Source: Craspedostauros australis (taxonomy: Eukaryota). Taken from it: 43,671 nucleotides of DNA. Below, piece by piece: positions 4,714 to 43,250 of this stretch. The translations under genes and the position numbers were made by a program. The notes beneath the pieces are model-generated. The model worked only from the letters and a program-made list of their open reading frames with translations, made no database searches and was not told where the DNA came from. Within the stretch, counting starts at the first letter, position 1. Each line of letters starts with the position of its first letter. The stretch lies in contig JALAGF010004489.1 of NCBI GenBank assembly GCA_030167865.1, forward strand, positions 1-43,671, read 5' to 3'.

Positions 4714-5757
4714 CTACCTCCACCAAACATTCACGCTGGTGCTCATGTCAATGGAACGAACTTGATGCCACCACTTGCTTGGGATGAAGATGATGTCGCC
4801 CGGATGCACGATGCACTCCTCGAACGGGAATGGGGCATGCTCGTGGAACAGCGGATACTGCTTCTCGTCGCTGGGTGAGATTTGTTCGACATTCACCGGC
4901 GACGTGTTGGATTGCTGCTGATCCGTTCCGGCGTAATGCCACATGGTCTTGTTTTGGATGGGGTCGGCGCACACGAAGCGCTTGCGGCCGCGGATCTGCA
5001 GCAGCAGATTGTCCAAAGGATCATGGTGCAGCGGCGACACGCAACCGCGCGGTCCCAACCACCACATCGTCTGGTACAGGCGACCGTTTCCGATGCCGAA
5101 GCTGTCGTTTGTGCAAAGCTGGGGCACGACGATGTCGTTGTGCAAGTAGTCGGGCAGCTCGTTCTGCGCCATGTACACGAGATGCTCCTTGGGAGGAAGA
5201 TCCTGACGCAGCAGCTGCATCAATTCCGATGCGTCGCCAGTTCGCGCCGCCGCCACAAGATCGTCGGTGGGGCCCGTCGCGCCGTATTGCTGTTCGAACA
5301 TTTCGAGATACAGAAAGTAGTCGGCGATGGGAATCTCTGGACGTTCGACACCCGGCGTGGTGTAGGAACCGCCGATTTCGATCTGTGCCGTTCCGTTCTT
5401 GTGTGCTTCTTTCAGATAGGAGGCCTCGCTCCATTTGCGAATGGCCGGCATGCCATTGGCGGCACCACGCAAGACGCATGGCCGTTTGGCGACGTAGTGT
5501 GGTCGCAGGGCATCGGCGATGCGTTGTTGCAGCGCGTTGGCGTCGTCGTCGTTATCGCCATGACTGTTGCGCACGTCCACCTCTGCCATTGGGGTTGTTG
5601 GGATTGCAGCAGATGATGCGCTTGTGGAAAGTCTGGCCTTGGACGACGATGATGGCGTCTGCAGGTCATGTTGGAGCGGGAGCCGTCGTTGATCTCGAAG
5701 CCTGATGAAGCTTCGCGTCAGCACACGGTATGAGCCGTGGATCGGAAGAGGCATCAT
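4714..5757 (-). CDS. JmjC-domain 2-oxoglutarate/Fe(II) oxygenase (JMJD5/KDM8-FIH-like, cupin_8 group)
   Basis: RPCVLRG...AIRKWS, YMAQ, WLGPRGCVSPLHHDPLDNLLLQIRGRKRF (HxD) and PGDIIFIPSKWWHQVRS...SVNVWW (distal His). Confidence 0.92.
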   Translation of the reverse strand: MMPLPIHGSYRVLTRSFIRLRDQRRLPLQHDLQTPSSSSKARLSTSASSAAIPTTPMAEVDVRNSHGDNDDDANALQQRIADALRPHYVAKRPCVLRGAANGMPAIRKWSEASYLKEAHKNGTAQIEIGGSYTTPGVERPEIPIADYFLYLEMFEQQYGATGPTDDLVAAARTGDASELMQLLRQDLPPKEHLVYMAQNELPDYLHNDIVVPQLCTNDSFGIGNGRLYQTMWWLGPRGCVSPLHHDPLDNLLLQIRGRKRFVCADPIQNKTMWHYAGTDQQQSNTSPVNVEQISPSDEKQYPLFHEHAPFPFEECIVHPGDIIFIPSKWWHQVRSIDMSTSVNVWWR

Positions 5758-6225
5758 GCCTACTGCAACCGAGACTTTGTGAGTGCGCAGCCGCGCTCAC
5801 AGACAGAGGTGTACTCGTGTGTATGGTAGAGCAGCGGTGTATCCTCGACGAGTATGAATGTTCTCGGAATGTTCAGGATACGTACAGTGATGACGGTTGA
5901 TGGGTAATGGCTTGTGGGAGGGTGAGATCGTTGTGGAACTGAACACGAGGAGATCTTGTTTGGATACTTTGGTGAACAGATGCTTCCAGTCACGGACGAC
6001 AAAACTATTGCTACAAACTCCGAATGCTTCCAAATCACTCGTGATTCGAGTTTAGGAAAGAGCTACGCAGAGGACACCAATTTGGCGCCAAAAAAGATCT
6101 CTATCCAACCTCCGCATCTCCTCTCTTGCGCCTGTGCTTCATGCGTGTGTCTGCACCTTCATGATGCCTCCCATTTCTTCCGCAGCCATGCAGCCATGCA
6201 CCCATTCGCTCTTTGCAGAGACCTC

Positions 6226-7884
6226 TCACGGAGGCAACATGATGTGCTGCAACAAGATGGCCTTGTCGTGGATGATGCCGTTGGCGTCTTCATCGTCGAG
6301 GAAGTTGACCATGACGAAGGTGTTGCCGGTGCTAGATTTCCTCCCGGGCGGCTGCACCACCGTCGCTTGGTAGAATGCAGTTGTGTCTGGGTAGATGGCG
6401 AAGACGGCATCGCCGCGGGCCAGGTTCTTGAGATCGCCGAGGATGGCGACCTGCGGTTGCGGCAGCGAGAAGGCTGCGGATGGTAATCATCGTTTGCGTA
6501 TTTGCAGATGCGAGGGAAATCAGAGAATCATGATGGAACGGTGAGGCATGAGGGACAGAATGGCATGAACGCCTCGTGACGTCTGCAATCAATATCGTGT
6601 ACGCGGTGCTGTGCTGTGTTCCATGCATCAAACGAACGATGAACACGAAGCCGGATGTGTCTGCACCAGCGCGCGAACTTACTCTTGTTGCTTTCCACAT
6701 CTTCGTCGGACAGCTTGTACATTCCCGTGTGAGGATCGTAGGAGATGACCTTGGCCAGAATCCATTCCGACCCACCAGCCGTTGGTTGGATGGCGGCAAG
6801 ATCGTTGGGCTTAGCGGCGCCAGGGACCTGGAAATCGCCTGACCGCTGTGATCATTATCGACAGAAAATGCGGGGGGAAGCACAGTGGTTTTGCAGAGAG
6901 ACAAAGACAGCGTGTGCAAATAGATAGATAGATAGATGTCAGTGCATTTCGAATAGTTGCGCATGAGCGCAGTATTCATCTGCCTCATCACAACACAGTT
7001 GGCAATTGCACTCACTTTGCGCAAAGCGGTGTGGTGCTGCCATATTGCATTTAATGCAACAGCATGCAACAATTTATCGGCCTTCCATACAGTCACTGGC
7101 ACGGCGCGTACCTGCAGAACCTGCTCAAGATGCTTGAGATCTTCATCCAGCCGGTCACAAACGTCTTCGATCAAGGCGCAGCTCTGATCCGCGATTGCGC
7201 ATTTCTCAGCGGCGTACTGCTCCGCACTCTGGTGACATTCCCGTATCCGGCTGTACATGTCTTCGTTGTGAATGTATTCGGCCAATTCTTCTGTTGTGGG
7301 GACGACGAGATTGTCGTCTGCCGTTGCCTTGCTCTTGGCGCTGCCTCTTTTGCGTTTGGCAACGCGTATGCCCCTGTTGTCGACCACATCCAGACCCAGA
7401 ACCTTCTTTTCGGCGTCGTCAACATACTGCTGCTGCAGCTTCATCATTTCTTGGATCGTTTCGCTGCGGTTGCGATCGTGTTCGAATGATGCACGGAACA
7501 TGATGGTTGGATGTTTAATATAATAGAATGCATGCAATGTATGGGTGCAATGTATAGATGCAATGTATCGATGCAATGTGTGAGTGAGATCAGCTGAGCA
7601 CGCTCATTCGACACGAAATTCGAGTGAGAGGGCTGGAACCGTTCCTCATGATAGCCATCCGTGTCCTTTTGCGGACCTCCATCCGCCTCACATACCCCCA
7701 CACTACGGATAGCAACCTGTGGATCAAAAGAAGAGACAATGATCCGTGTTGTATCCCATCAAACAACTCACTTCGATGATCGATCGAGAGACTGGATGAG
7801 ATCCATATTGCGCTTGATTTCGTGCGGGATCGTGGAGATCTCCTCAACGAAGGACTCCAGGTAGGTTACATCGCTGCGCGTCAT
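6226..7884 (-). CDS. Spliced gene, 291 aa: ING N-terminal coiled-coil plus SGF29-type tandem Tudor. Exons 7884-7772, 7463-7112, 6845-6683, 6473-6226
   Basis: Three GT..AG introns (donors GTGAGT, GTACGC, GTAAGT; CAG acceptors) give an 876-nt in-frame CDS. TYLESFVEEISTIPHEIKRNMDLIQSLD and EKCAIADQSCALIEDVCDRLDEDL are ING-N-like. EWILAKVISYD...YKLSDED and VFAIYPDTTAFYQATV...VNFLDDED are SGF29-like. Confidence 0.88.
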
Positions 7885-10833
7885 GGTTGCTGGCAATCTA
7901 GATCGTGGATCCTTTGTGTGCGAGATATGGTGTTGTACGGTACGACTATGATACTCGCAAGCACTTGGAAATGGTGAAAGTAGCGTCCTTCATGAGACCA
8001 TCAAAGGTGATGATTGCCGCTGTGATGGTGTTTGTGAAGCAGCTCTTTGCGCTTGTTGTTGGCGCCAACCTGTTGTCGTCTTGCTTCTCTTGGTGGCGCC
8101 ACCCTTCGGCAAACGAATATACATTTAATGTGTATTTCACCCAACTTACATTACGACGTATTTTATGAATTTACCGCAGATTCTCACGACCATGTTCAAC
8201 CGCCTTCAAAACCCAGCGCGGACTGGAATCGAGAAAGTGGACACGCTCATCCATCCTGTTCCGAACACGGCGAGCTCCAATCAACCACCTCCGATCAGGG
8301 GAAATAGTATTACAGAAATCGAGTTCTTTGTGGTCGAAGCGGATCGCTGCACGGATGAGGCGACATGGGAGAATCAGAAGGAGATGCAAATCCAACGTCG
8401 TGAACGTGTGCTCGTTGTGCGACAAGGTCAAGGCAAGGCAATACTCACGCGTCCTCTATTGTGATGCGCCTCCTTTGGATTCTATCGCAACTTCGCCACA
8501 CCTCGATCGCCATTACCATTTCCTTCTGAGGCCTCCACAAACAAGGATGCAATCGCGGAGAGGTCTGGCTCTTCGGCGACTCTGGAAGATTCATCCATCC
8601 GTGAGCGATGTGTGCAAGGAGGCCAACATGGATGCGGTAGCGTAGTATTCTATTATTATTCTACGATCTATAACACACCCCCATGAGACAGAAGGGAAGT
8701 TAAAGATGAGCGAATTACAATACTCAACTATACCCCACTCGACGATAGAATTGTGTAGGTGGGGGCGGATGAAAGACTACCAAAGAGCAAGGAAGAGAAA
8801 TGGCGCGCTTCCGGGAAGAACGGAGAAACGGAATACGATACTCCGCCCCTTGAGAGCATTTTGAAGGTGCGGCTGTGCCATGTCATGTGTAACTCGTTCA
8901 TCCGGCTGCAGATAATGAGGGAGGAGAGTAGAGAGGCGAAGTTCTTCGCATGACGGAGATGGTAATGGAGGTGGTGGCTCGAGCTTGTTCCAGAACCAAC
9001 CCAGATTCCAAACGGTGCCACTTGCGGTTCGTAGCATGACAGTTATCATTGACACGCCCTTGTGTGGGTGTCTCGATACCCACGAGAGGTCCCAGGGAAG
9101 AAACACCCGGTTGTTGTCTCGCTCTTTGGACTATATCTCTTTGGTGTGGTACGATCTAGACATGTATAATACCATGTAGAGGGTGCCTCATGGTTGTTCT
9201 GGTCGTCAACTTCACCTTTCTATTCATCATCTTGCTTGTGTATGTTGCTTGAGGCTTGGTACAGACTGAGGGTACTACCTATTACACTCTGTTCCACTCG
9301 ATTCTCCTCTCCTCTACGAGCTCCTCTTGTGGTGCGATACCACGCTTCGCTGACGTCTGCCTGTGCTGGGACTACCTACACTTGTGGTTGTTGTTGCCTG
9401 GGTGCGAATGGACCAATGCGAGTGAGTTCTGATGTTGATGGTGTTCCGCATGGCGAGGACACGTCACGTCATGTTGACCGGAAGAGTTCGGGACCACTCA
9501 GCAAGATGCTTCCTTCTCTGTTTCTTTGTGCGATAAATTGGAGGTTCCTTATTTAACGCTGAATGTGGCTGACACTTGTCCTTTCCAAAGGCGTGGCGCT
9601 TCTTTTTTTCCGATGAGACATAAAGTTACTTATGGGACTCTGCAACCACATGTGACATTCTGTGATCACAAATTGGGATGATCCCACGAATTCCTTGGAG
9701 CAGAGACATCGGTTTGGGAGGGTTTCGTTGATGCTCTTGGTTGGTCGAGGAGCAGCGACGATGGTGTTCGTGTGGATGCCTGAAGTTGTCGTGGTGGGAA
9801 GTACGGCTTCTTGTTGGTGGCCATGGGACACGCAAGGACGAGTTTCCATCACCCTTTGCTGTCGCTGTGTTGTTTTCTTGCCAGACACCAGCCTCGATCG
9901 TATCCGCGTCCTCCTTGCCCAGGCATGGTGAATCGGTTCTTTCCTTCTTTGCCCGGCCATCCTCAACTCCATAGCGTGTCCATGAAACAGGCGGCCATCA
10001 GTCTTTGATAGCGCGGTGAAGTTGCAACTGAACGAGGAAGACTCACAGGAGAGCAAGAGACAAGCGACAACGAGCGACAACCACAAGCGAAAGCCAAACT
10101 CGGAGCCAGAGACAGTTGCAAAGATCAAGAGAAAGTCTTCGCATCGTCCACACAAAGACGACGATCGAAGCATCTTCTTGGCGAGATAAGACGAGGAGGC
10201 TCTTCAGGGTTTCGCTTTGTCTGTGAGGAGGCGATTTGACTTGCGCTGCCAAACACCCATAGCTCGTACACATTAGTACTCGTGCACGGACTGCTCCGAC
10301 TTGGCAAACATCGCTGAAGCAGGTCTCTCTCTCTTTGGTTGTCTTTGGTTGTCTTGGTGCAAGAGACAATCGGCATTGTCCCTTGGAGTACGACCATCAG
10401 TACATATTTACGATACTCGTACCTCATCAAACCGATCCACATCCAACTGAAGCATCTCCATCGCGAAGGCCATCCGTCACAGGCAACGCTCTTCTCGTCG
10501 TCTGTTCATCATCATCCAACCGCACATCCAATCCAATTCATCGTAGGTACCCGCGCCACAGCAAACCATACGATACGCCAACCCTGAGAGTGGAAGTGGT
10601 GTGAGTCCAGCTGAATTACTCTACTCTGCTCCATTCTATTCTATTGTATTCTATTGTATTTTATTCTCAACACAATTACCGCTTCAGATCAAATCGAAGC
10701 GCATACAGCACAGCGCATTGCAGACTCTACTCCTCTCTCTGGAGCGCACAATAAAGAGAGCATCATTGCGAACATTCGATACGCGAAAAGCACAACGAGG
10801 TTGAACACCATCTGCACCGACACATCATCATCG

Positions 10834-15440: not shown

Positions 15441-17365
15441 ATGGCAACAGCAACAGCGGCAGCAAGGAACGTGCCGTTCCCAGCACCTCGGCGACGCAGC
15501 CTCCGCCCCAACAAGAACAATGTCGACGATGATGAGCAGAGCCTGGATCTTGCCGATCTGATCCAGTCGTCCAAACCACGCGTGCTGCCCCCCAGACGAA
15601 GGGATGCGGAGCCCCGCGTCCCGTTGGCATTGCAGGAGATCTTCGTGAGGGCGCAGCGTGGCGAGGAAGTCGAGGCGCCGCAGAAAAATCTCGGATCGAA
15701 GCTCTTTGTCAGATGCAAGACGTTGTTCGCGCCGCATAATCCGCTGTTGCAGACCATGCCCCCGTCCAAGGCGAAGCGCAAGATCTCCTTCCTGCGACGA
15801 TTCAGCAACAGCACGAAGGTTGGAATGCGCAGACCCGAGACGCCATCGCCGACGCAAAGTACGACGGAGCAGAGCGAGACGTTTGCGGAAGAGGCCGAAT
15901 CCGCGTCCATCCGAGCGATCATGGCGCAGAGGCGGTCGTCGCTTTTGGCGGTGAGTTTATTCTTACTTGGACGAGTGTTCTTACTTGGAAGAGTGTTCTT
16001 ACTTGGAGGTTTGTTATGTTGGTGAGGTTGATGTGATCATCCTCGTTCACGCAAGCACTTGCGATGTCCTCCTTGTGGAGATGCCATGGAAGCTGCCACA
16101 ATACAATACCTTTGCTTCAATCAAACACTTGCACTCACCAATGATCCTTGTTCTCTTCTTCACAATTTCCTGCGCAGCAGACTGCCGATAAATCGCATCA
16201 TATCATCGAAGAGGAGCAGGAGGTCATGTCACCACGGCAATTCATGGAGGAAGCTTGGGAAGAACGAGGGTACTACATGTACTCACCCACCAGCAATCCT
16301 GCAAGCCATGCCCCCAATGGAAGCACCAATACCACCCAAACTCAACAAGAGCAGCAACCTCGCGGACGACATGGTGGAAAGCGGACAAAGCGCCACTCCA
16401 ACAGCACGTCATCGAGATCCACTCAGACCACCTCCAGCACATCCGGCACGTTAGATTCAACCAACGCAACTGTTGTTGCGCGATCACCGACAGCCCTGGC
16501 TCGGTTCTTCACTATCGAAACGGGCTACTACAGCCAACCAACGCCATATCAACAGGCCAGCTACGGCCACGCCATGACCCGTGCCATCCGCCGCAACGAT
16601 GTCAATCTCGTGCGGCGATTTTGCGATGCCGGCTTATCTCCCAATCCGTGCAACCGGCATGGCGATTCCGTCGTCCACATGATCTGCCGCCGCAATCAGC
16701 TCGGCATGCTGCGCACGCTGCTGCGGTATGGTTGCCATCTGCAGTGTACCGACGATCTGGGCCGCACGCCGTTGCACGACGCCTGCTGGACGACGCAACC
16801 CAACTGGGAGCTCATCACGCTGTTGCTGCAGGTTGATATTCATGTCCTGCAGGCCATGGATTGTTACGGCAAGACGCCGTTGTGTTACGTGCCCGTAGTG
16901 GCGCATCGCGCATGGAACGCCTATCTGCAATCCAAGCTGGATCTGTTCTGGCCAACCGGTCATGTCCAGGGACCGCCCAAGCTCACCAAGCATCGCCCGC
17001 ATGCCTTTCCCATCGCGGATCCTTCGAACGCCGTGCCGTTGAACGTCGCGGCCTTCATCGCCAATGGCCAGATCGCCCCGGAAGATGCGAGTCTCTGCAT
17101 CCACGAAGATGGTGCTGGCGTGCATGGTGTTGTAGCTGGCGGTGCCAACCATGACGATCTCAATCACAATGGGAGGCACGATGATGATTCGTCCATATGC
17201 ACGGACAACTATGATGATGACGACGACGACATTGAGACGGATTCGGACATTGACTATGAAAGCGATGACTCCGACTTCCACCGGGAAGGTGACAATTTCA
17301 TCATCTCATTGCACGGCAACCGAAATGCCTTCTCCGCGATGATGCCATCCGCTGTTAATGTCTAG
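15441..17365 (+). CDS. Ankyrin-repeat protein (~565 aa), two exons 15441-15950 and 16178(or 16181)-17365
   Basis: GCG|GTGAGT donor at 15951 and pyrimidine tract + CAGCAG acceptor, both phase 0; ANK motifs NPCNRHGDSVVHMICRRN, DDLGRTPLHDACW, DCYGKTPLCY; acidic tail. Ankyrin exon is secure, exon 1 join is inferred. Confidence 0.8.
15958..16008. repeat. 18-bp tandem repeat x3 (core TTCTTACTTGGA) inside the predicted intron
   Basis: ttcttacttggacgagtg ttcttacttggaagagtg ttcttacttgga. Confidence 0.85.
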
Positions 17366-22961: not shown

Positions 22962-25900
22962 GAGACGGAGGATCAAGCACGAATAAAATAGAGAGCTTGC
23001 GTACTATTATTATGAGGCAATGGAGAGGAGTTGCGAGACATCGAGGATCGACACAGAATCGCTGCATCGGACGTCATCATTGAAGGCGATCTTCTGCCTT
23101 CGCTCCGCATGATGATGCTTCCGAAGTGGAGGAGGGAGGGAAGGAGGGAGGTACATCGAAGTCTGTGTGAAGGAGGGCAGTGGGTCCAAGACCAGAACGG
23201 CACACAGAGAGAGCACGGACAAGAAACAACCTGTCATGGATCGCGCGAAGCAATCAACAGAGCATCACTCCAACCAATGCCAAACGCGAATCCGACGCCC
23301 TTGTGGATTGCAGCGATTGGCGCGACGACCAATCTGACACGAAGCCCAGAACCTTCGCAGGACCTTGGTGTCTTGCCTTGCCGTGAGATTGATGTCGCTG
23401 TCTTGGACAGAATGCGTACAATAGTAGTAGTTCGCACAGCCGAACAAGGAAAGCGTTTTGGGCCGTCGGTCCTTCAGGCTTCGTTGTTTGCGACGGAGAG
23501 AAGTCAAAACGTACTATACAGCTACAACACCCAAATCCATTGAGACGTTCCAAAGGTCTTCATCAATTCCCACCCAAGAGATGATGGTGTCATGATGATG
23601 ATGATGATGATGATAGCCGGCGTAACCATTTGCCCGATCCGATGCTCCCGGACATGATTCGGGCGAGTGGTGGATGAGGGAGACTAACGGAGCCTTGTGG
23701 GAATGCAATTCCTCCGCTCGGTTGTACTGTAGCTCGTAGACCAACCTGATCTTTGACCTCCGAGTTCTGCGCTGTGGATGATTGTGTTGGTTGTGTTGGC
23801 CATGTTGCATCTTCTGATACGACAACAGCAACAACAGCAATGCTACACTTGAAGAGCGTAGGTTTTAGGCAAGAGAATGAAGTCTCCACGACGCTCCTGA
23901 GAGTAAGTCTCCACACATACCACAGCCATAAGAAAGGATGCGGATACAGTTATCTTATTTCAACCCTCTGCGCGCAGTTGCATCAACAAGGAAATTGCAA
24001 CAACGGAGCTGCCGAAGTCAGGTCCAGCAGCACGATCAACTCATGATGGACGTTTGTGGAGTTGAGGTTAGCTGTTGCTCTGTCTCTCTCTCTCTCTCTT
24101 TGTCGCCCATGCCAGGCAGCGTCAGAAACATCAACCTGCGCGATCCTCTTGCGCGCAACGACGGCCGATCTTGCTTCCTCGCAATTTCATCACCGCCATG
24201 GCCGGAATCAATCACACACTCTCTCTCTCTCTCTCCAGAGATACAGCGGGAGTGACATGATTGATTGATCGGTGTCGTCACTCCTTGTGCCCACATGCCT
24301 GCCCTCCTCACTACCCACATCATCTCTCCATCCTGCTCTACCCATCACCATCTCCTTGGCGTGAACCAACGTGTGGAGAGACAATTTCTCCAAGTTGGCA
24401 TTAAATGTTCGCCCAGCGATACTCGCAGAGAGCGACATCAGTTCTCACCATTCTCCCTTTTGTGCATTTTCGGTTTTGCGCAAACGACCTTCGGCGAATA
24501 ATCGCTTGTGTTCTCCGCATGCATTGCTTTGGGGTGTGAAGGATGTTCACGGCACACGACAGGATAAGTGCAAAACTTCCGCAACCGGAGCCCGGAAGGA
24601 GAAGAGAGAGAGAGAGAGCGCTGCGTGTTTGTGGACACGATACGACTAAAAGGCCCAAGCTGCGAGTACTCGTAAGATAATTGTGACAGAAGGAGCACGA
24701 GGCGCGCAAAAGTAGGATGACATTGCGCTGTGTCGAAATGGGGAACGAAATGGGAACAGGAATGATGAGGCAACTGTCGTGGCGGGTGGATTTCACGGAA
24801 CGCCTCACGATGATTGTGTTGGACCGCTCTGTCGTCGTCGTCTCTCTCTCTCTCTCTCTTTGGAGCAAGTTCAGGAGAGCAGCATTGTGGGCGCCATCAA
24901 AAGTTGCTATTTCGCGAAGCAAGACATGGTCCCGTTCCTTCTGGAGGTACTCCATTTGGTGAACACGATCGTGCAAAAGTGTTGACTGAAGAAGACACAT
25001 ATCTTGCATGTCGATCGTGACGCTCTGGCAGTTTCGCCGCGTTTCTGTTGCCCTTCGTGCAGACTAAGCGAGCATTTGGGTCTTGCGGTAAATAAAAACA
25101 TAACATGATTATGACCATTGTGCGTTCTATCAGATATGATTTGTGTTGGATATGATCGAGACACTACTATAACAATTAAAAAACAATTAAACCGTATACC
25201 CCGGATACGTCCTAAGAAGACGCGGCTGCGTTTTCCGCCCCCTTCCTTCGAACAACGATGGAGTCGTCGCTGGCGCAACGCTGTTGGTATCAGGTCATTG
25301 TTTGCCTTTGTCAATTGCACGAACTGCCCATTCCGCAGCAACCAAAAGCAAAGACAGACTGCATGTACACCACGCCTCGCCGTAACAACAAGAACAGGAG
25401 GGAAGCGTCGAGCCCAGGTACCATCGCACGAGCGCAGGACATTGACACAAACCGAACAACACAAGCGTTCGCGCTGATCAGCACCAAACACGGACGCAGA
25501 CACACGCCTGCGGAGGGTCCATTTCGCACCTCTGGCAGAGCAGTAGTAGAATACGATCCATCAGTACTCTGTTGATACCATACCATAGCTCGGACCATAC
25601 GTCGGACCATACGCAGATCAGCATCCGCACCTCGACGAATCCCACCAAGAGATAGAGTGCAATAAAAGCGACAAACCGCGCCACCATTCGCATCCATCGC
25701 TGAGGCTTCTTCTTCACTTGACGCAAGAGCCCATCTTGAGGTGGCCTCATTTCAAAGAACGGCGCCCTTCCATCTTCTTCCTCGGCTGGTTGCATCACAC
25801 GCAGCGTGGAAAGAAGAGGAGACCACAAACGGAACCTGCTCTATCACACCTGTTGTAGTACACTCGTAGCTCGTACGACTATTCTACGTGTGAATTCCAT

Positions 25901-25974
25901 CCGAGACTCGAGGTGGCCATAGCATCCACAAGCGCAGCATTCACAGAGAGGTGGACAGGAGCAACTTGAACAAC

Positions 25975-28900
25975 ATGAACAACATGCAATCGCAAGGCCA
26001 GCAACAACAACAACAACAACAACGAGAAGAACAGTACGATGATGAAATACTGAGCCTTCAGGGTTCCAACAGGCAGTTGACAACGGCGGCGAGAACAGGC
26101 GATGTTGGACAGATGCTGGGTACTTCGCAGGCGATCCTGGGTGCCGGGATCGGTGACCGCGGTCCCGCGGGCGCAGCCTACCTGGGGGAGAGCATCGTAG
26201 AGGACGGGAGCAGCCATCGGGGGGCGATGTCCGGCACCAACTCCACGCCCACCAGGATCCGCACCACTGATTCTGTCCTGGGGGGCTCCACCAGCACCAA
26301 CCAGGTCGAATGGGGCAGACGCGTGGACAAGCGCGTGCGCCGCATGCGCGAGTACCTCCTCTTCCTCCTCATCGGCGCCACGCTATTCATCAGTCTCACC
26401 ATCTACTACACCATCTTCTTCAACCAGGTCAACCAGTTCGAGGATCAGTTCACGAGCATCTCCGTTCAGTACCTCGATCGGATACAGGAGCAGTTCGAGT
26501 CCACCATCACCGTCCTCACGACCATCGGTGAGAGCCACACCATCACAACGCCAACCGCCAACCTTAACGGAGACGTGGACGTGGACGTGGACGTGAGCAG
26601 CACACAGACGGACCAGCAGCGGGACAGGCGGCTCGATTCTACTCTCAAGGCCTCGAATACATACCCCCAGGACTGGCCATTCCGCATTGTCCCAGGCCAG
26701 GACTGGCCCGTCATTGCTGCATCCACTCTCTCCATTGGCGACTTTGGTTGGACAGCGATTGTGCCCGTGATTCCCAACAATGACACTGTGCGAGCACAGT
26801 ACGAGGCATACGTGGAGGAGACCAAGTCTGCGTGGATGCCGCCCACGCAAGCTTACAACCAGAGGATAATCCGACAGTGGAGACAGACATTCCTGGGGAA
26901 CGAGGACATCCCCGAAGGACAACAGCAGCCTCCCAACTTCTCGAACGCCATCTTCAATTCGAAAACCTTGACGGATCAGCAGGCCTCCAGGAACTCCACC
27001 GTCAACGCCATCTTCGAACACGAGCCAGACGATCCAGACTACTACCGAGTCCAGCCACCGCAGACTGGTCCCTACTACCCCATCCACCAGAGCTACCCGC
27101 TCGCGCCCATCAACCTCAACTACAACCTCATGTCTCACGAAGTCTACGGCAAGGAGCTGCAGGTCGCCTTGGAGCTCTTCAAGCGTCAGCAGCACATCTA
27201 CACCATGTACGTTGGCACGTTGACCGAGGCGACGGGTGTCGGTCCAAGGGACAGGCCCAACGCAAAGGGGGAGACGAGGAAGAATTTGAACTACCAAGGC
27301 CTCAAGCTCAGGCAGCCGGCCAGCATGTTCTTTGTACCCATCAAGGCCGGACTAAGGACGGCGACTGAGGGAATCCTGGACTCCGATTCGACCGATGATG
27401 ATGATGATGGTGAGACCACACCGGATGCCATCTGGATTGCCAAATTCCGATGGATCCCCATGCTGCAACCGCGAAGCTTCTCGGAGAAGGCCGAAGGCAT
27501 GCAGATTGTTCTGGTGCACAACTGTCGGGGGTACGAGACGGACAGCGAATCGGGAAAGATGAAGGAGGTCGTCGAGCAGCTCAGCACGACCACGTTCCAA
27601 GTCAACGAGGATCTGGGAGTGGAATGGTTGGGTTTTGGAGATTTGCACAAATCGACGCTCAATTACCTCGAGGAATCCGCAGTTCTGCGTCAGCCCATCC
27701 TGCGACGTACACCGGACGCCTTCCGAACCCTCAGCTCCACCATGGAGGGCTGCGCACAGTTCGAGTACGAGCTGCGGCTGTACCCATCGCAGAAGATGAA
27801 GGACAACTTCTTCAACTTGGCGCCGATCGGGTACACCGTGCTCGTGCTGGTCGTATTTGCTGTCACGTCCCTGATCTTTATCGGGTACGACTACTACGTG
27901 GATCGACGGCAGCGGCTGGTCATGCAATCCGCCGAGCGACACCACGCCATCGTCTCATCGCTGTTCCCAAAACGAATCCGGGAACGTCTCTTCAAGTCCG
28001 TCGATGTAGAAGTCACATCCAGCAGACGCCGTGCGCAGTCGGGGGAAGCCATCCCAGCGGAGGTGACGGACAACTCAATCCATGGTCGCATGCTGACGCA
28101 ACGTGCCAGACTCCGCAGTGCCCTGGCCGCGGCCGCTCCAACTTTGACCGCGCCTCCAAAGGGGAACGAAAAGTCGGAAAGCAACGACAGCGAAGGTCAC
28201 TCCTTCTACAACGACGCCTCGCTTTCGGGCGGTAACCACGACGACAAGGACGGCGATACGGGGACCCACTCCGAGGATGGGGCAAGCAAACACGCGATGA
28301 TGTCAAACGCATCCACGCACAGCAGACTGCTGAGGCCCGGCCGCAGCCTCGTCAAGTCGTTCCTGGGAGGAGGCAACAAGGACAGCACGTGGGCGAAGGG
28401 GGCCTCTTCGCACCAGCGCGTCACCTTCCTTGGAAGTGGTATGGGCGCCTCAACGCACAGCCGACGATCGGGCAGCGGCAGTACTGCCATGGCACAGTCC
28501 AGCGCCATCGCAGATCTCTTCACCCAGACCACGGTTCTGTTCGCAGATATCGACGGGTTCACGGCGTGGTCATCGAGCCGCGAACCAACGCAGGTGTTCA
28601 TCTTGCTCGAGACGGTCTACGGCGAATTCGACACGCTGGCTGACAAACGCGATGTCTTCAAGGTGGAAACCATCGGTGACTCCTACGTCGCCGTCACTGG
28701 ACTCCCCGATCCGCAGCCCAATCACGCCGTCATCATGACACGTTTCGCTTACGAGATGCAGGTCCAAATGACGTCGGTCACGCGCGAGCTTGTGGTGGAG
28801 CTGGGACCCGACACGGCCGATCTGTCCCTGCGCGTTGGATTGCATTCAGGCCCTGTCATCGCCGGCGTCCTGCGCGGACAGAAGTCGCGATTCCAGCTGT

Positions 28901-31097
28901 TCGGTGACACGGTCAACACGGCAGCACGTATGGAAAGCACGGGCAAATCGCATCACATCCAATGCTCCAAGTCCACAGCCGAAGCGTTGGAAGACAGCGG
29001 CAAGTCGCAGTGGCTGATCCCGCGTGAGGATATGGTCATGGCCAAAGGCAAGGGTGCCATGCAAACGTACGTCCATGCATGCATGTTGTGATGTCCTGTA
29101 TATGTATTGAGTGTCTTACTTGTTGCTGTACTTGTTGCTGGATGCATGTTGTTCAAAATCGACGCCGCTTGCTGCTTGCTGCTTGCTGCTTGCTGGTCAT
29201 TGTGTGCAAAGACTGAGTTTGCAATGACACGGAGCACGATGTGCCATAGGCCACATCACATACCGCACCGTCTCGTATCGCACGACATCATGCTCAACAC
29301 GGCACGAACACTCCGTTTATTCCTTCATCTTTCGCTGCGTACCATACATACTCGCATTCATGCTTGCCACTTTCGTGCCACACAATCTCCGTTTGATATC
29401 CCACACACTACTGCAGCTTCTGGGTGGATCCAAGAGGATACAGGAGGAAGCGCAGCAAACGCTCGATGAAAAAGCCGTCACCGCAGCATTCGGGGCAAAA
29501 CAGCACCGATGGAAACACCGCCGCCACCGACACAGATCGCAGGGATTCCATCCGATCCAGCAACAGCACGGGAGATGTCGAAACCACCGCATCTCCGCCT
29601 TCTTTCGCGGATGGGGCCTCAATTCAAAGCCAGAGGAGCAGCAATGCCGATACGGACCGCGACGATGCAGATGATGACAAGTTCATGCAGGACGACGATG
29701 GCAGTTCTCGTGGCGGCATGAGCTCATCGCGAGACAAGTACGGACGCAGGAAGAAGGCATCGCGTTCGGCGGACTTTGAACGTCATCTGGATTGGAATGT
29801 CGACCTTCTATCGCGACTGCTCAAGTCAGTCATCGCTCGCCAGAAGAACCGTGGCAGCTTCCAGGTGAAGAATTCGAACAAGCCGCAAGTGAAGAAGCTC
29901 TTCAACCTGTCCATGAGCACGCACAACTCGGAGGCGTCGATCCTTGAGGACGACATCCACGAATTCTCCTTGAGGTTACCAAGAGAGGAGTACGCAGAAT
30001 GTATCCACCTCCCGCAGTACCACCACAAGAAACCCGCCAAGGGCCAGCAGCAGGACATCAGCGCCGACAGCATCCAGATCGACAAGGTGGTTCAGGATGA
30101 GCTCCGCGATTACGTCACCAAGATCGCTTGCTCGTATCACAGCAATCCGTTCCACAACTACGACCACGCCACCCATGTCACCATGTCCGCCAACAAGATC
30201 TTGAACCGCGTGGTTGCGGCCGAAGACATGAACATCAACATGAAGCACCACCGACGGCTTTCGTTGGATGCGGTGCGGCACGACTACACGTACGGGATCA
30301 CCTCCGATCCCTTGACTCACTTTGCGTGCGTGTTTTCCGCCATGATCCATGACGTCGACCATCCTGGCGTCTCTAACGCGCAGCTCGTCAAGGAGGAAGA
30401 CGAGATGGCGATGTTGTACGGGCAGAAGAGCGTGGCAGAGCAAAACTCCGTCGATCTGGCATGGAATCTGCTCATGGACCCCGCCTACCGCAATCTCCGC
30501 AACGCCATGTTCATCGGCGAGGAGGAGAGGAAGCGATTCCGCCAGCTGCTGGTGAATTCTGTGATGGCCACGGACATCTTCGATCCTGAACTCGTCGCCA
30601 AGCGCAATCGACGTTGGGAGAAAGCGTTCGCATCATCGTCAGGCTCCACCGTATCATCGTCATCGAATGACGAAGACCACAAGGGCGAGGAACATCAATC
30701 CAGCGCGGATCTGCGTGCGACGATTGTGATCGAGCACATCATCCAGGCAGCCGATGTCAGCCACACCATGCAGCATTGGCACGTCTACCAGAAATGGAAC
30801 AGGCGCTTGTTCAACGAGATGTACCGCGCATACAAGACGGGACGTCTGGAGAATGACCCGTCGAAGGGCTGGTACAAGGGCGAGCTGTGGTTCTACGACA
30901 ACTACATCATCCCGCTGGCAAAGAAGCTGAAGGACTGCGGCGTGTTCGGCGTCTCCAGCGACGAGTTCCTGAACTACGCCATGATGAACCGTTCGGAATG
31001 GGAGGTGAAGGGAGAGCAGATCGTGGCCGATCTGTTGGCAAGCTTCGAGGACAACGCATTGAAGCGAACCTCATCCCAAGACACCATCGATGCGTGA
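25975..31097 (+). CDS. Receptor-type class III nucleotidyl (probably guanylyl) cyclase fused to a class I cyclic-nucleotide phosphodiesterase, ~1590 aa; exons 25975-29066 and 29417-31097
   Basis: Two TM helices flank a ~470-aa luminal domain. Cyclase motifs VLFADIDGFT, KVETIGDSYV, GLHSGPV, RFQLFGDTVNTAARMES. Intron 29067-29416 (GTACGT..CTGCAG) restores KGKGAMQTFWV. PDE motifs PFHNYDHATHV, HDVDHPGVSN, ATD, AADVSH. Confidence 0.93.
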
Positions 31098-38460: not shown

Positions 38461-41400
38461 TCAAGCAAAGTGCGAACTGAACACCTCCAGATCTTGCAGT
38501 TCCTCGATGAACGTCCTGCCGTTGCTGCCGGGATTGCCAAGACCGAAGCTCAGCGGCGCCCCCGTCGTTGTGTCGATTGCCAGCACCGTGTACCGCAATT
38601 CACACGTCAGCGTCGCCGTGCCCTCCATGCGTTGCGGCAGTGCCGATAGCACGCACCAAGCCGCTCCACCTGCCTTGTGCGGTAGAACACGGATGGGCAC
38701 GCGGATGGCTGGCTGGATGGCCTCCTCCGAACTCTCGGCGACGACGAACGCGACGTTGCCGAGGGCGCGTCCATCGACGTTAGCGTTGTTCGTGACGATG
38801 GCCTGGATGACGACGTGCCTTGGGAAGAAGTGCTTCACAATGGTGACGTCCGGGAAGGTGGATGAGGCAGACGATGATGGACGAGCCTTGATGGGTTTCG
38901 TCGAATGGATGGGGTCGCCCAGATTCAATGACTTCAATTGAGGCACGACGTGCAAGCTCGCCTGCGCCTTGAGCTGTGCATCCGTCAGCTTCTCCTTCAA
39001 CGCCACGTACTTGGATCGCAGCAAGGATGACACCACCGTCAATCGCCGCACCTGCGACTCGCTGTCGACAAGAGCAGGGATCAGGAATGGCCGAGCGACG
39101 GCCGACACGGGCACGTTCTTTGGCAGCAACCTCAGCGCTGCTGCACGGTCGATGGCACCGCGACGCAGCGCCAGCACCTGAATGGCGGCATTCGTTCCGC
39201 GTTTGGAGTCCGAGTCGGATTGCAGCGCCACACGCACGAGCGGCAGATACGCGCATCCTTCGTCGCCAGGGAGGGTCGCGGACATCCTCGTGTCGTGCGG
39301 ATCGTCATTCCAGGCGCCACCGCGGGCATTCATGCGCGCGCGTTGGCGTTCTCGCTTGGCTTGCAACCGTTCGTGACGCAAATCACAGTACTCCAACGCC
39401 AAATCGAGGCTCTTGCATTCACCGTACAGAATCTGCAAGGCATCCTCGTGCCGTCCCATCCTCCCCAGCACCAGCGCCTGCTCTTGCAGGAAGGACTTGG
39501 GTAGTGCAGATAGCAGGCGTTCGGAACGGATCTTCGTCAGGGGCCATCGCAAGAAGACTCGCAGCTTGCAACGATACAGTGTCCCGAGCACGGTGTCGGT
39601 CTCATCCGTGTTGTCGTCGCCACGTTCCGCAATGACGCCCTCCAGAAGCAGGTAGCACAGCTCGTCGTGGTAGTTCGCAATATGATCTTCCATTTCCGGA
39701 TCCGGCGCCAATCGGTTAAACGCATCCTCCTCATCGTCGTCGGCGCGTCCTGTGGAGATACCAATGGCAGCCTCGAGGTAGGTGACCGCCAAGGCACGGC
39801 CGGACTCGAGTGGCAGCGCGATGGATTCACCATTCTCATTGACGTCATCCGCCAAAACATCCGATTCCTTCTGATCGTACGCGACGGTCGGTTGTATTTT
39901 CTGCAGCAGCTTGATGACCTCCGCTGGATACGTGGGATGCGACAACGGATCATCACGTGCCAGCATGGCCCTCCACTGTTTGGATGTTTGCGGCAGCAGA
40001 GATGTGAAGACTCCGAGACCCAATCGCGGATTCTCTTGCAGCAACCGATGTGTTGCAATGGATTTGAGCACCAGCGAGCAGGCCGACGGCTTGCCCGTGC
40101 TCCACAACTCGGATAGATGAGTGGCCGTGTAGGAGGCGTACTTGATGGGCGACCACGTTGTGACGCCGCTGTTGCCGGTCGATGGCGGTGACGCCGACGA
40201 CGATGGGACGCGGGCCGTCTTCTGGCTCTGCGGCAGCCGCTCGTACAGCACCTGGATGGCACGTTCGTGCTGTCCGCTGGCGCGAAGGAGCCACACGGCC
40301 GATTCGATGAGGTCCATGCTGAGTTGGGCGTTGTTGGAACTGAGCAAGGAGAAGGATTGCGACGCTTCGCGCAGCAGCCGATCTGCGACCTGACTGCAGA
40401 CCTGCACCGCCGATGCAGGCAGATCGTCCGAACCATCGCCGACGGGGTCATTGAGCACGATGGTGCCGACGCGGTTGGAACACATCTTTGCTGCTTTGTT
40501 GGCCAAGGCTGGCTTGGGTGGTGCTAGCTGCGTGCACACTAGACACAACAGAGCTGTGCCGGTGACCAACGACGTGGGGTTGGCCACAGATGCAACGGTT
40601 GGCACAACCGATTGATCCATCGCGCTGGCGTTGACAGATCTGTTTGCGGAGAAGGAGGCCTCGATGGTGCGACCACCATGCGGGGAAGTATCCGACACGG
40701 CCACGGGCCATGATCCATCGTCACCATCCGCACTCTCCCATTCCAAGAGTCCCAAGATGGCCTGCAGGTACTGCCGCAGCAGATCCCGCGATTGAGGTGT
40801 CGGTTCCGGACCCACATACGATGTTGCCGTGAAGCTGGCCTGCAAGGCATCCGCCAGCTCGCCGCGCGGGAACCCGTTGGCCCCAAATGCATCGATGGCA
40901 TGGCGCATGAGACGATCCGCCAGATCCTGGGTCGTGTCCGGCAGCGCGCGCAGAGACTTCGCCTGGCACGAGTAGGACATGGTCACGAGCAGGGAATCGA
41001 GCTGGGATTCGTTGGCGACCACTGGATGGGACTTGTTCATCGCAACCGGATTGTTGTTATTGTTGGCGAACTTCATGGTTGCTGCCGACATCATCTGCCC
41101 CAAGTTCATGGAACGCAGGCCGAAGAAATCGTTGGGCCGCGTTCCGACCTCGACGGTGCGCAGAGGAATGGCAACGCAGGATGGAGAACGGATGCTGACG
41201 AGTCCGTCGCTCGTGAGCACAGCGATGAGGTACGGTCCCGCCAGCGCCGCCGCCAGGATGGGACTCGCCACCGTGACCATGCCGTTGCGCGGCTTCGATG
41301 CCTCCAGGAGGGGGTGGGTGGAACCGTAGGAGTGGTGACGATGCTGATGGGCGGAGGCATCGTGGCGCAGATCCACCACGGCGCATTCGCGGCCGTTGGC

Positions 41401-42720: not shown

Positions 42721-43250
42721 CGTTGCGACTACCGTGGAGGATAGGAGAGTAGAGTAGATTAGATTAGAGCACAATGCTTCCTGCTTTTCTTACGTATACA
42801 ACTATATGCTCTTATGGCTGGACAAGAGTGTCGGAGATGATGGGGCAGATGAGCAATGTTGTTGCATGAGCTGCGGAGAAGACCATGGCCGAGGAAGATA
42901 CCGTCGCCTCCTCTTCGATCCTCATCTTGGTGTTCTCCCAAGAGACGAGGTTCCGCCACGGCGGATCGTGTGTTTCTTGCGCGCGATCTGGGACACCCGG
43001 CAAAATGGGTCGAATTAGTCTATCTTGGAGGCTACTGACCCAGCCAATCAAAACTCGTTGTTTTTGCGATGACAAAAGATCCCACAAGAGGAATGTTCTC
43101 GAATCAAATTTTCGTTCTCAGGAACTCTTTGAAGGTCATAGCTTCCAGTTTTATTTATGGGTATTTCGTGGAGAAACTCCGAAAATGACTCTGCAATACT
43201 GTGTCTTGATTTAATCCCGACCAGTCGTGCGAAAACCGAACCCTTGATTT

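Follow-up and report, generated by a model that had tools for sequence, protein, structure and literature searches.

An ING-type docking domain and an SGF29-type tandem Tudor on one small protein of Craspedostauros australis: a putative H3K4me2/3-reading adaptor

Introduction

Proteins that read H3K4 methylation link histone acetylation to active promoters. Two unrelated reader folds serve this job, the ING-type PHD finger and the SGF29-type Tudor pair, and each has been assigned its own complexes. Among ING proteins, ING4 and ING5 (HBO1 and MOZ/MORF complexes) have N-domains that form an antiparallel homodimer, and ING3 and Yng2 (the latter being a true ING protein) belong to TIP60/NuA4. ING N-domains of the Pho23 and ING1/2 type dock to Sin3 complexes. 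SGF29 (human SGF29/CCDC101, yeast Sgf29), the reader of SAGA and ATAC, contacts SAGA through its N-terminal helices. To our knowledge, chromatin readers in diatoms are almost unstudied.

Here, we describe a gene of Craspedostauros australis located in a window of 43,671 nucleotides (the whole stretch of DNA analyzed; GenBank assembly GCA_030167865.1, contig JALAGF010004489.1), whose product carries both an ING docking domain and an SGF29 Tudor pair. The family to which it belongs represents a natural experiment, in which an ING docking domain has been combined with the reader of another family, a build retained in diatoms and other ochrophytes, in a labyrinthulid, and in a green alga.

Gene Structure and Transcript

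The gene lies on the minus strand of the window, with a CDS running from 7884 to 6226 (876 nt, that is, 291 codons plus the TGA stop at 6228..6226). A single 1149-nt contig from run X1, which is RNA by guess only, covers positions 7957-7772, 7463-7112, 6845-6683, and 6473-6026 with no other letters, and skips stretches of 308, 266, and 209 nt, each of which is bounded by CT..AC on the plus strand and hence by GT..AG on the gene strand. The spliced contig gives a transcribed span of 6026..7957 (minus strand), comprising a 5′ UTR (7957-7885), the CDS (7884-6226), and a 3′ UTR (6225-6026), and intron phases of 2, 0, and 1 follow from its coordinates. The four-exon splice model that had been drawn from the letters alone is thus reproduced with its three GT..AG introns as drawn, including the exact position and phase of the intron at the domain boundary (7111-6846, phase 0). 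Exons 1-2 and 3-4 do not belong to separate transcripts, as one contig bridges all four.

All features are on the minus strand. Exon 1 (7772..7957, coding from 7884 to 7772) encodes residues 1-37 plus 2 nt and contains the start of the first ING helix with the motif YLESF...IPHEIKRN; it is followed by intron 1 (7464..7771, 308 nt, GT..AG, phase 2). Exon 2 (7112..7463) encodes residues 38-155, in which ING helix 1 is completed and leads through a variable basic loop into ING helix 2. Intron 2 (6846..7111, 266 nt, GT..AG, phase 0) is placed after residue 155, at the border between the ING and Tudor parts, and holds a (TCTA)n-like repeat near 6912-6945. Exon 3 (6683..6845; residues 156-209 plus 1 nt) covers the linker and the first Tudor, including the acidic D202-E203-D204, and is separated by intron 3 (6474..6682, 209 nt, GT..AG, phase 1; after residue 209, within the Tudor region) from exon 4 (6026..6473), whose coding part (6473-6226; residues 210-291 and the stop) specifies the second Tudor with the methyl-lysine cage and continues into the 3′ UTR. 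Each exon falls in a stop-to-stop ORF of its own (7768..7989, 6332..7603, 6528..6851, and 6226..6486), so that a prokaryote-style ORF track would yield fragments only; the sequence-only reading had stated that the ORF track misses the gene.

The joined product is 100% identical to P0005 (291 aa), a record that is named for Craspedostauros australis and has 'mmetsp' among its sources. Because run X1 and the P0005 record may derive from one data set, they do not provide mutually independent support. The same protein is already present in UniRef and MMETSP and the sources annotate its relatives with both domains, and the earlier description of the gene as hidden does not hold in this sense.

Domain Composition

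The presence of an ING docking domain and an SGF29 Tudor pair on one small protein is a confirmed observation. The ING N-domain (Pfam PF12998, 52.1 bits against a cut-off of 23.9) spans residues 8-149, encoded at 7130..7863 on the minus strand and split by intron 1; in the whole-protein Pfam scan it reaches an E-value of 1.1e-13 and covers 101 of the 102 profile positions (1-101). When the exons were scanned separately, exon 1 matched ING positions 1-29 (23.9 bits) and exon 2 positions 56-101 (28.6 bits). The AF2 model shows helices at residues 8-60 and 105-157.

A family profile made from 15 diverse relatives of the window protein was compared with crystallized N-domains, and it matched ING4 at 3.6e-19 (profile 9-124 on chain 2-104), ING5 at 1.2e-18, and ING3 at 2.8e-13, and also Yng2 at 2.1e-6, Pho23 at 5e-3, and Png2 at 0.43. 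Residue-by-residue alignments with the ING chains revealed the ING signature in both helices. The hairpin is closer to human ING4/5 than yeast Yng2 is, which argues for an ING-like constraint on the hairpin. In addition, the canonical ING+PHD protein P0276 aligns to residues 7-161 (E 3e-14), and P0276 and its relatives, one of which (P0277) is named for the oomycete Thraustotheca clavata, share with the window protein a loop motif (PTEEEL/PTTEEL) and an invariant G158 just beyond the hairpin, indicating that the N-terminal half is collinear with a stramenopile ING as far as the domain border. A fold search without the Foldseek prefilter (VIA) placed Yng2 in NuA4 as the best helical match (Z 10.9, 108 residues, rmsd 2.6); as the helical matches lie among many generic hairpins with Z of approximately 10, only the SGF29 rows and, to a lesser extent, the Yng2 rows carry weight in this search. 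When residues 1-157 alone were submitted to Atlas, which is used here as a lead only, ING clusters (0.82-0.79) were retrieved and SGF29 clusters were not, and the structural rows were generic helices. The ING-type N-terminus that had been proposed is thus borne out by Pfam and by the ING4, ING5, ING3, and Yng2 chains, and the N-terminal half, scored alone in Pfam, is ING rather than the ordinary SGF29 coiled coil. A match caused by coiled-coil composition was rejected, since the other coiled-coil families gave E >= 0.057 in the whole-protein Pfam scan compared with 1.1e-13 for ING.

The SGF29-type tandem Tudor (Pfam PF07039, 65.9 bits against a cut-off of 23.8; E 4.9e-18 in the whole-protein scan) occupies residues 177-275, encoded at 6277..6782 on the minus strand and split by intron 3, with exon 4 giving 46.2 bits and exon 3 giving 21.4 bits, which is under the 23.8-bit cut-off. 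The family profile matched the human SGF29 chains (3lx7/3me9) at 1.3e-24, Foldseek returned 3me9_A as the top match (8.8e-9), and SGF29 ranked first in VIA (Z 13.3). The predicted H3K4me2/3 cage codons lie within 6295..6393 (minus strand) and comprise Y237 (6393-6391), Y244 (6372-6370), F267 (6303-6301), and D269 (6297-6295), the two tyrosines being the ends of the motif YPDTTAFY (residues 237-244). In the alignment with human SGF29, these residues fall on Y238, Y245, F264, and D266, which are the SGF29 cage residues according to a published study (PMC4589357). Across the 15 diverse relatives, Y237, Y244, and F267 are invariant and D269 is nearly invariant. In Tudor 1, the D-x-D of the human SGF29 chain, which we take to be D194/D196, the acidic pocket for the amino group of H3 A1, is matched in the alignment by D202 and D204; D202 is invariant and D204 nearly invariant in the same 15 relatives. 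The SGF29 study mentions an H3A1 pocket in passages that carry no residue numbers (PMC4589357). The SGF29-type assignment of the C-terminal half proposed earlier therefore stands, with the PF07039 score, the human SGF29 match, and an intact methyl-lysine cage, and the kept cage residues suggest that the Tudor pair may bind H3K4me2/3.

As had also been noticed from the letters, a PHD finger is missing. No PHD family was found among the nine Pfam families with E <= 1 on the whole protein, while a scan of the same type recovers the PHD of the control P0276, and PHD hits at E <= 0.001 are absent from all 132 distant relatives. Translation ends 16 residues past the Tudor match at a stop codon that the transcript includes, and a PHD exon further downstream was rejected on account of this stop codon and the 200-nt UTR on the transcript.

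Distribution and Intron Conservation

Among the close hits, 65 of 109 have both domains on one chain, and among the distant representatives, 50 of 132 do. The named carriers include diatoms, Triparma, Tribonema, Nannochloropsis, Chrysoparadoxa, a labyrinthulid, and the green alga Ostreococcus. Chains of 250-320 aa with ING plus SGF29_Tudor were confirmed for P0251, P0193, P0236, and many others, and relatives with the same build are 24-59% identical to the window protein. The names given by the sources are divided: the Ostreococcus tauri entry is an 'Inhibitor of growth protein, N-terminal' and, in UniRef, a 'Histone acetyltransferase SAGA associated factor SGF29'; in Nannochloropsis gaditana, Seminavis robusta, and Mucochytrium quahogii, the entries for this build are called 'SGF29 tudor-like domain protein', 'Inhibitor of growth protein 4', and 'SGF29 C-terminal domain-containing protein', respectively. 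This split between ING and SGF29 implies that the family has been classified by nobody. Our literature searches retrieved no paper treating an ING-SGF29 Tudor protein, and SGF29 does not occur in the accessible portion of a chromatin-evolution preprint (10.1101/2021.11.30.470311). Many algae have the ING-Tudor build and it is listed in databases, and it appears that nobody has studied it.

In 9 of 15 relatives without a significant ING match, a sub-threshold ING signal (E 0.003-0.2) was present in the N-terminal half, which suggests a gradient of sequence divergence instead of a clean class. Several related loci, including L001 and L058, encode both halves uninterrupted in one frame. Locus L059 has a Tudor ORF without ING, whereas its sister loci L060, L062, and L063 have an ING-like part on the same long ORF, so that L059 can be counted in the family as a member carrying a long low-complexity insert. 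A further homologue search, with scoring limited to the 8000 candidates that had most words in common, gave 122 matches, none of which was a plant, animal, or fungal SGF29. For the fungal-like SGF29 loci L074-L080, 1697 ORFs yielded no gene-strand match to the N-half profile (the best match, E 0.07, was on the wrong strand); as the N-terminal exons of these loci are unmodelled, this negative is a weak one. A tree of 16 named members leaves 8 of its 12 inner branches open and places Ostreococcus and Mucochytrium on very long ones.

The position and phase of intron 1 were solved in 7 related metagenome loci, those of intron 2 in 4 (L025, L037, L061, and L064, with identical values for L061 and L064), and those of intron 3 in 12. 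Intron 2 is missing from at least six loci that keep intron 3 (L027, L039, L044, L047, L049, and L054). Being found in only 4 loci and missing from at least 6 that have intron 3, intron 2 cannot be tied to the fusion, and the hint of exon shuffling that had been drawn from its position is weak, with the boundary intron in 4 loci against 12 for the Tudor intron.

The sequence-only reading had further supposed that one H3K4me3 reader replaced another. A PHD-less ING half joined to SGF29 Tudors is indeed what was found, but the event is not local, since the build is common to ochrophytes, a labyrinthulid, and a green alga, and any swap must therefore be ancient. The ING-Tudor protein may simply be the usual SGF29-type protein of the lineages that carry it.

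Proposed Function and Alternative Explanations

The gene product very probably reads H3K4me2/3 as an adaptor within an acetyltransferase or deacetylase complex, most likely a histone acetyltransferase complex of the MYST or SAGA type. What the data show directly is the transcript, both domains, the conservation of the cage, and the wide occurrence of the build; histone binding, nuclear action, and the identity of the complex are what we infer. The 291-aa protein would be a nuclear chromatin adaptor of two modules, one for docking and one for reading. The SGF29-type Tudor pair would bind the free H3 N-terminus with K4me2/3, holding the methyl-lysine in the cage Y237/Y244/F267/D269 of Tudor 2 and using the acidic D202/D204 pocket in Tudor 1, and the ING-type helix-loop-helix hairpin would anchor the protein in a histone-modifying complex. 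Our tentative preference is that the hairpin docks in an ING-like manner into a MYST-family acetyltransferase complex, where it may sit on an EPC/JADE/BRPF-like scaffold together with EAF6; the Tudor pair would then take over the job that the PHD finger has in an ordinary ING protein, leading to acetylation at H3K4-methylated promoters. In Phaeodactylum, H3K4me2 and H3K9/14 acetylation both peak at gene 5′ ends (PMC4504042). Atlas contains, again as a lead only, another diatom cluster of 203 members with SGF29_Tudor in 100% and SAP30_Sin3_bdg in 85%, which could be the SAGA-type SGF29, freeing the ING-Tudor protein for another complex.

Several observations speak against the MYST assignment. 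A hairpin region of approximately 150 aa followed by a Tudor pair in approximately 290 aa is the ordinary layout of SGF29; the green-alga member, whose Tudor scores 111.9 bits, is called a SAGA associated factor SGF29 in UniRef; the patchy spread over stramenopiles and a green alga would be simpler if these proteins were SGF29 orthologues; sub-threshold ING signals occur in 9 of 15 relatives without a significant ING match; and the helical structural matches lie amid generic hairpins. It is possible, if somewhat doubtful, that the protein is the plain SGF29 of these lineages, i.e., the H3K4me2/3 reader of a GCN5-ADA2-ADA3 (SAGA/ADA-type) module, with a hairpin binding ADA3 and an ING likeness that is either ancestral or due to an old replacement of the coiled coil. 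Length and domain order agree with this, as do the source names and the sub-threshold matches in 'Tudor-only' relatives, and vertical descent with unequal divergence would fit the broad and patchy distribution, which takes in a heterotrophic labyrinthulid. Two Atlas results, both leads only, point the same way: a Chlorophyta SGF29 cluster, 86% of whose members have ING, stands beside a Streptophyta SGF29 cluster without ING, and model residues 7-291 align to the latter. However, a hairpin that is nearer to human ING4/5 than Yng2 is would be difficult to reconcile with its having served another partner for so long, the fungal-like loci L074-L080 gave no gene-strand N-half match (with their N-terminal exons unmodelled), the N-terminal half alone retrieves ING rather than SGF29 clusters in Atlas (lead only), and a second diatom SGF29_Tudor cluster may exist (an Atlas lead). 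An extended version of this idea, which we consider unlikely, is that SGF29 and ING share one ancestral docking hairpin, that the algal and stramenopile ING-Tudor proteins are slowly evolving SGF29 orthologues, and that the 'coiled coil' of animal, fungal, and land-plant SGF29 is a degenerate ING domain; the ADA3-SGF29 and EPC/JADE-ING-EAF6 modules would then be homologous, with an exchange of Tudor for PHD in early eukaryotes.

The other explanations have lower probabilities. An ING1/2-like subunit of a Sin3/Rpd3 deacetylase complex, with the Tudor pair in place of the PHD and deacetylation at H3K4-methylated chromatin, would agree with the docking of Pho23- and ING1/2-type N-domains to Sin3 complexes, with the weak Pho23 match of the family profile, and with the diatom proteins combining SGF29_Tudor and a SAP30 Sin3-binding region (an Atlas lead), which hint that Tudors of this type are used with Sin3 parts in diatoms; it is nevertheless improbable, because the ING4, ING5, and ING3 matches are far stronger than those of Pho23 (5e-3) and Png2 (0.43) and no SAP30- or Sin3-related family was found at E <= 1 on the window protein in Pfam. 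Far less credible still is a bridge between two acetyltransferase complexes, as the sequence-only reading had suggested, with the ING half in a MYST complex and the remainder on SAGA, in favor of which only the mixed ancestry of the two halves can be named. As the Tudor pair of SGF29 binds H3 and SAGA is contacted through the N-terminal helices, the SGF29-derived part of the protein is without a known SAGA-docking surface. The SGF29 study describes the Tudor pair as binding histone H3, not SAGA (PMC4589357). Finally, the probability of an artefact, whether a chimeric assembly, a mis-joined gene model, or a coiled-coil composition match, is negligible. Although run X1 is only guessed to be RNA and may be the data set behind P0005, the four exons lie in genomic order with canonical splice sites, both domains recur together among close and distant relatives (65/109 and 50/132), loci L001 and L058 encode the two halves in one uninterrupted frame, and the ING match is far from the values of other coiled-coil families. 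Chimeric assembly and mis-joining are refuted for practical purposes by the splice sites and the shared build.

The finding should be seen as a pointer: it does not amount to the discovery of a new system or type of mechanism, and public databases contain the sequence. If the protein resides in a MYST complex, PHD and Tudor readers are interchangeable parts; if it resides in SAGA, SGF29 is anchored by an ING domain, and the two acetyltransferase modules would then be related by descent. Both assignments can be tested directly in transformable diatoms.

Comparison with Known Systems

The window protein and SGF29 have the C-terminal tandem Tudor (PF07039) in common, down to the Y, Y, F, and D of the cage and the two acidic residues of Tudor 1, and they are similar in total length and in having N-terminal helices ahead of the Tudors. 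It differs in that its N-terminal half is ING (PF12998, 52.1 bits), whereas the fungal-like SGF29 loci, whose N-terminal exons are unmodelled, are without such a signal. The likeness to ING4/ING5 and ING3/Yng2 consists of the same N-terminal helix-loop-helix with the ING signature in both helices, and these proteins are likewise small and have a C-terminal module that is expected to read H3K4 methylation. However, their reader is a PHD finger and that of the window protein is a tandem Tudor, and the hairpin loop of the latter is longer and variable. The stramenopile ING-PHD proteins (P0276, and P0277 from Thraustotheca clavata) are collinear with the window protein over residues 7-161, with the shared loop motif and G158; past the hairpin, a basic linker and a PHD finger follow in these proteins, and the Tudors follow in the window protein.

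Gene structure and transcript

The ING-Tudor gene is located on the minus strand at window positions 7957-6026 and consists of four exons, the coding pieces of which translate without interruption; the coordinates give a CDS of 876 nt (7884-6226) and intron phases of 2, 0 and 1. One 1149-nt contig of the public sequencing run X1 matches 7957-7772, 7463-7112, 6845-6683 and 6473-6026 with no mismatches, and the stretches missing from it (308, 266 and 209 nt) are all GT...AG on the gene strand, so that the three junctions proposed in an earlier sequence-only reading, including the intron 7111-6846, are found exactly in a single contig. That X1 is RNA is a guess; the absence of three canonical genomic introns from its contig is hard to explain by anything other than mRNA. 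The 291-residue product is identical to the public protein record P0005, which bears the source tag mmetsp and is listed in UniRef under the diatom Craspedostauros australis. Since X1 and P0005 possibly come from the same data set, they are counted as one line of evidence. The coding pieces lie in four separate stop-to-stop ORFs and a prokaryote-style ORF list therefore gives fragments only; that the gene is missing from the ORF track had been remarked before. A short TCTA-type repeat inside intron 2 (window about 6912-6945) was passed over as a repeat in read mapping.

Domain composition and predicted fold

Exon by exon, Pfam ING was matched by exon 1 (23.9 bits) and exon 2 (28.6 bits), and Pfam SGF29_Tudor by exon 3 (21.4 bits, slightly below the cut-off) and exon 4 (46.2 bits). 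In the whole protein, ING scored 52.1 bits (E 1.1e-13, residues 8-149, profile positions 1-101 of 102) and SGF29_Tudor 65.9 bits (E 4.9e-18, residues 177-275); the next coiled-coil families had E 0.057 or worse, and PHD was absent among the nine Pfam families at E <= 1. A family profile derived from alignment A2 (15 diverse relatives) was run against all PDB chains, where it matched human SGF29 Tudor constructs at 1.3e-24, SGF29 being represented in this search by Tudor constructs only, and complete N-terminal constructs of ING4, ING5 and ING3 at 3.6e-19, 1.2e-18 and 2.8e-13, respectively. Yeast Yng2 (2.1e-6), Pho23 (5e-3) and Png2 (0.43) scored lower, and the ING signature is visible in both helices of these alignments. 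The domain content deduced from the sequence alone is thus borne out, with an N-terminus of ING type rather than an ordinary coiled coil, Tudors of SGF29 type and no PHD finger.

The AlphaFold2 model (mean pLDDT 78.5) has long helices at 8-60 and 105-157, with a poorly predicted basic loop between them, and then beta strands in the stretch 171-267. Its top Foldseek match was 3me9_A, human SGF29 bound to H3K4me3 (8.8e-9). Without the Foldseek prefilter, Z was 13.3 for 3me9_A, 12.6 for yeast Sgf29 and 10.9 for Yng2 within NuA4, which aligned over 108 residues at rmsd 2.6 but stood among many generic hairpins near Z 10.

Reader pocket

In PMC4589357, the cage of human SGF29 is given as Y238, Y245, F264 and D266, and the H3 A1 pocket is mentioned with no residue numbers. 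Profile alignment to the human SGF29 chain places Y237, Y244, F267 and D269 on the cage residues; the first three are invariant among the 15 relatives and D269 is nearly so. The D-x-D of Tudor 1 is retained as D202/D204, corresponding to the human pair D194/D196 of the H3 A1 pocket. Binding of H3K4me2/3 by the Tudor pair is a well-founded prediction, since the cage is both aligned and conserved. According to PMC4504042, gene 5' ends in another diatom carry peaks of both H3K4me2 and H3K9/14 acetylation, so the mark and a linked acetylation are present in the diatom group.

Distribution of the two-domain build

A word-indexed search with the whole protein gave 109 matches, 65 of which contain both Pfam families (ING only, 26; Tudor only, 12; neither, 6), and all of the named matches were diatoms (Cylindrotheca, Nitzschia, Seminavis, Amphora, Chaetoceros and Cyclotella). 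An exhaustive search of 1.84 billion representatives returned 604 matches at E <= 0.001. Pfam scanning of the 132 new ones among the best 150 detected both families in 50, Tudor only in 46, ING only in 33, none in three and PHD in 0. Many single-family matches are the same gene in fragments, cut at introns; 91 matches stop before residue 275, including 16 at 150-159 and 52 at 205-219. One aligned record (P0085) has insertions precisely where introns 2 and 3 of the window sit, as expected of a gene model reading through two introns. Several loci (L059-L063, e.g., L060 3-1292) carry a long poly-glutamine and glycine-rich insert between the ING-like and Tudor halves, giving proteins of 430-484 aa, and comparable long forms occur among the representatives (e.g., P0146-P0148).

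Cluster look-ups added distant two-domain members in Chrysoparadoxa, Triparma, Tribonema, Nannochloropsis, the green alga Ostreococcus tauri, the heterotrophic labyrinthulid Mucochytrium and a transcriptome of the foraminifer Bolivina. On re-scanning, the Ostreococcus member had 42.3 bits for ING and 111.9 bits for Tudor, and the Nannochloropsis and Mucochytrium members had both domains. The build is therefore not local but is found in diatoms, other ochrophytes, a labyrinthulid and a green alga. The Bolivina argentea record (P0170) clusters with Chrysoparadoxa and Tribonema (94/90) in a tree whose remainder is unresolved; it may be algal in source and should not serve to extend the family to Rhizaria. 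Atlas leads include clusters with ING in 86% (Chlorophyta) and 93% (Bacillariophyta) of members, a Streptophyta SGF29 cluster without ING, and a second diatom cluster (203 members, about 312 aa) with SGF29_Tudor in 100% and SAP30_Sin3_bdg in 85%; if the last is real, diatoms also join an SGF29-type Tudor to a Sin3-binding part. Source names conflict, from 'SGF29 C-terminal domain-containing protein' and 'SAGA associated factor SGF29' to 'Inhibitor of growth protein 4' and 'Inhibitor of growth protein, N-terminal'; databases show the build but leave it unclassified.

Introns and origin of the N-half

A scan of metagenome contigs yielded 80 related loci, most of them nearest the diatom protein and some nearer other ochrophytes. 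The protein was mapped onto these loci and exact GT..AG junctions were solved, which placed introns behind residues 37 (phase 2; seven loci), 155 (phase 0; four loci, L025, L037, L061 and L064, the last two identical in values) and 209 (phase 1; 12 loci); L043 and L050 have a break near 151-157, not solved to the identical point. At least six loci (L027, L039, L044, L047, L049 and L054) cross residue 155 uninterrupted and keep the intron at 209, and several more distant ones lack any break in contigs of 4.6-27 kb (e.g., L051 and L058). Judging from these positions, the three introns are inherited, the one at the domain boundary being the least widely shared. Its phase 0 is compatible with exon shuffling, as had been proposed, but it carries little weight (four loci vs 12 for the intron at 209), and it cannot be linked to the fusion, since the build with both domains long predates diatoms.

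P0276, a canonical PHD-bearing ING protein, aligns with residues 7-161 (E 3e-14). When ING-Tudor proteins were aligned with P0276 and two of its relatives, one named for the oomycete Thraustotheca, both groups had the N-terminal signature in common, together with a loop motif (in diatom members, PTEEEL or PTTEEL) and an invariant G158 immediately past the second helix, beyond which the ING-PHD proteins continue into a basic linker and PHD, whereas the ING-Tudor proteins continue into Tudors. By these common features, the N-half is collinear with a stramenopile ING as far as the domain border. Nine of 15 relatives without significant ING match ING below threshold at the expected position (E 0.003 to 0.2), which speaks against a clean split. 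The N-half profile, run against 1697 unspliced ORFs, gave no gene-strand match in the fungal-SGF29-like loci L074-L080, a weak negative. The boldest reading compatible with these data, a common ancestral docking hairpin of SGF29 and ING that is preserved in the algal ING-Tudor proteins, seems rather unlikely.

Neighboring frames

About 230 nt downstream of the transcript 3' end, on the same strand, a 360-aa frame (4714-5796, minus) matches Cupin_8 (E 2.4e-37) and JmjC. A JmjC-type oxygenase adjoining a methyl-lysine reader is suggestive; adjacency by itself is no evidence of a link. Two plus-strand frames lie about 300 nt apart. The first (25894-29091, 1065 aa) has an adenylate/guanylate cyclase catalytic domain at its end (E 2.7e-47) and the second (29397-31097, 566 aa) contains a 3'5'-cyclic nucleotide phosphodiesterase domain (E 1.6e-30), and the two may be a single spliced gene; cyclase-phosphodiesterase fusions have been described in diatoms. 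Other frames include an uninterrupted one of 1442 aa (38461-42789, minus), with a coatomer gamma appendage platform near the C-terminus (E 4.1e-12) and a weak Vps41 TPR-like match, and one of 406 aa with ankyrin repeats (16145-17365, plus). At E <= 1e-4, Pfam matched none of nine further long frames of the window.

Probable function and relation to known proteins

Very probably, the Tudor pair would read K4me2/3 on the H3 tail, and the ING hairpin would anchor the protein in a histone-modifying complex. Which complex this might be is a more tentative matter. Docking of the ING type, into an acetyltransferase complex of the MYST family, is slightly favored, because the sole tested evidence on the docking half is strongly ING, with a likeness to human ING4/5 that exceeds that of yeast Yng2, and because another diatom SGF29_Tudor family may serve SAGA. 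That the protein is instead the SGF29 of these lineages, with GCN5, ADA2 and ADA3 as partners, is a serious possibility, considering that its layout resembles SGF29, that the green-alga member is named SGF29 and has a high Tudor score, and that the patchy spread is most simply explained by vertical descent; the ING character of the docking half and the possible existence of the other diatom family argue against it. Little speaks for a role in the Sin3 deacetylase complex, which is improbable, or for a bridge between acetyltransferase complexes as once suggested, which is highly improbable. The transcript is spliced, the two domains are confidently assigned, and the cage and the family are conserved; an artefact is practically excluded.

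Literature searches, which took in few subscription journals, found no paper on the ING-SGF29 Tudor architecture. The suggested exchange of one H3K4-methyl reader for another agrees with the ING half, the Tudors, the intact cage and the lack of PHD, but it is ancient and not local. As a conserved and testable exchange, the build is visible in databases and needs no new mechanism. Compared with ING proteins, it lacks the defining PHD finger; compared with SGF29, it has the sequence features tested, and canonical SGF29 is not known to show an ING-like N-half. The protein is accordingly filed as a putative H3K4-methyl reader subunit that combines an ING docking domain with an SGF29 reader.
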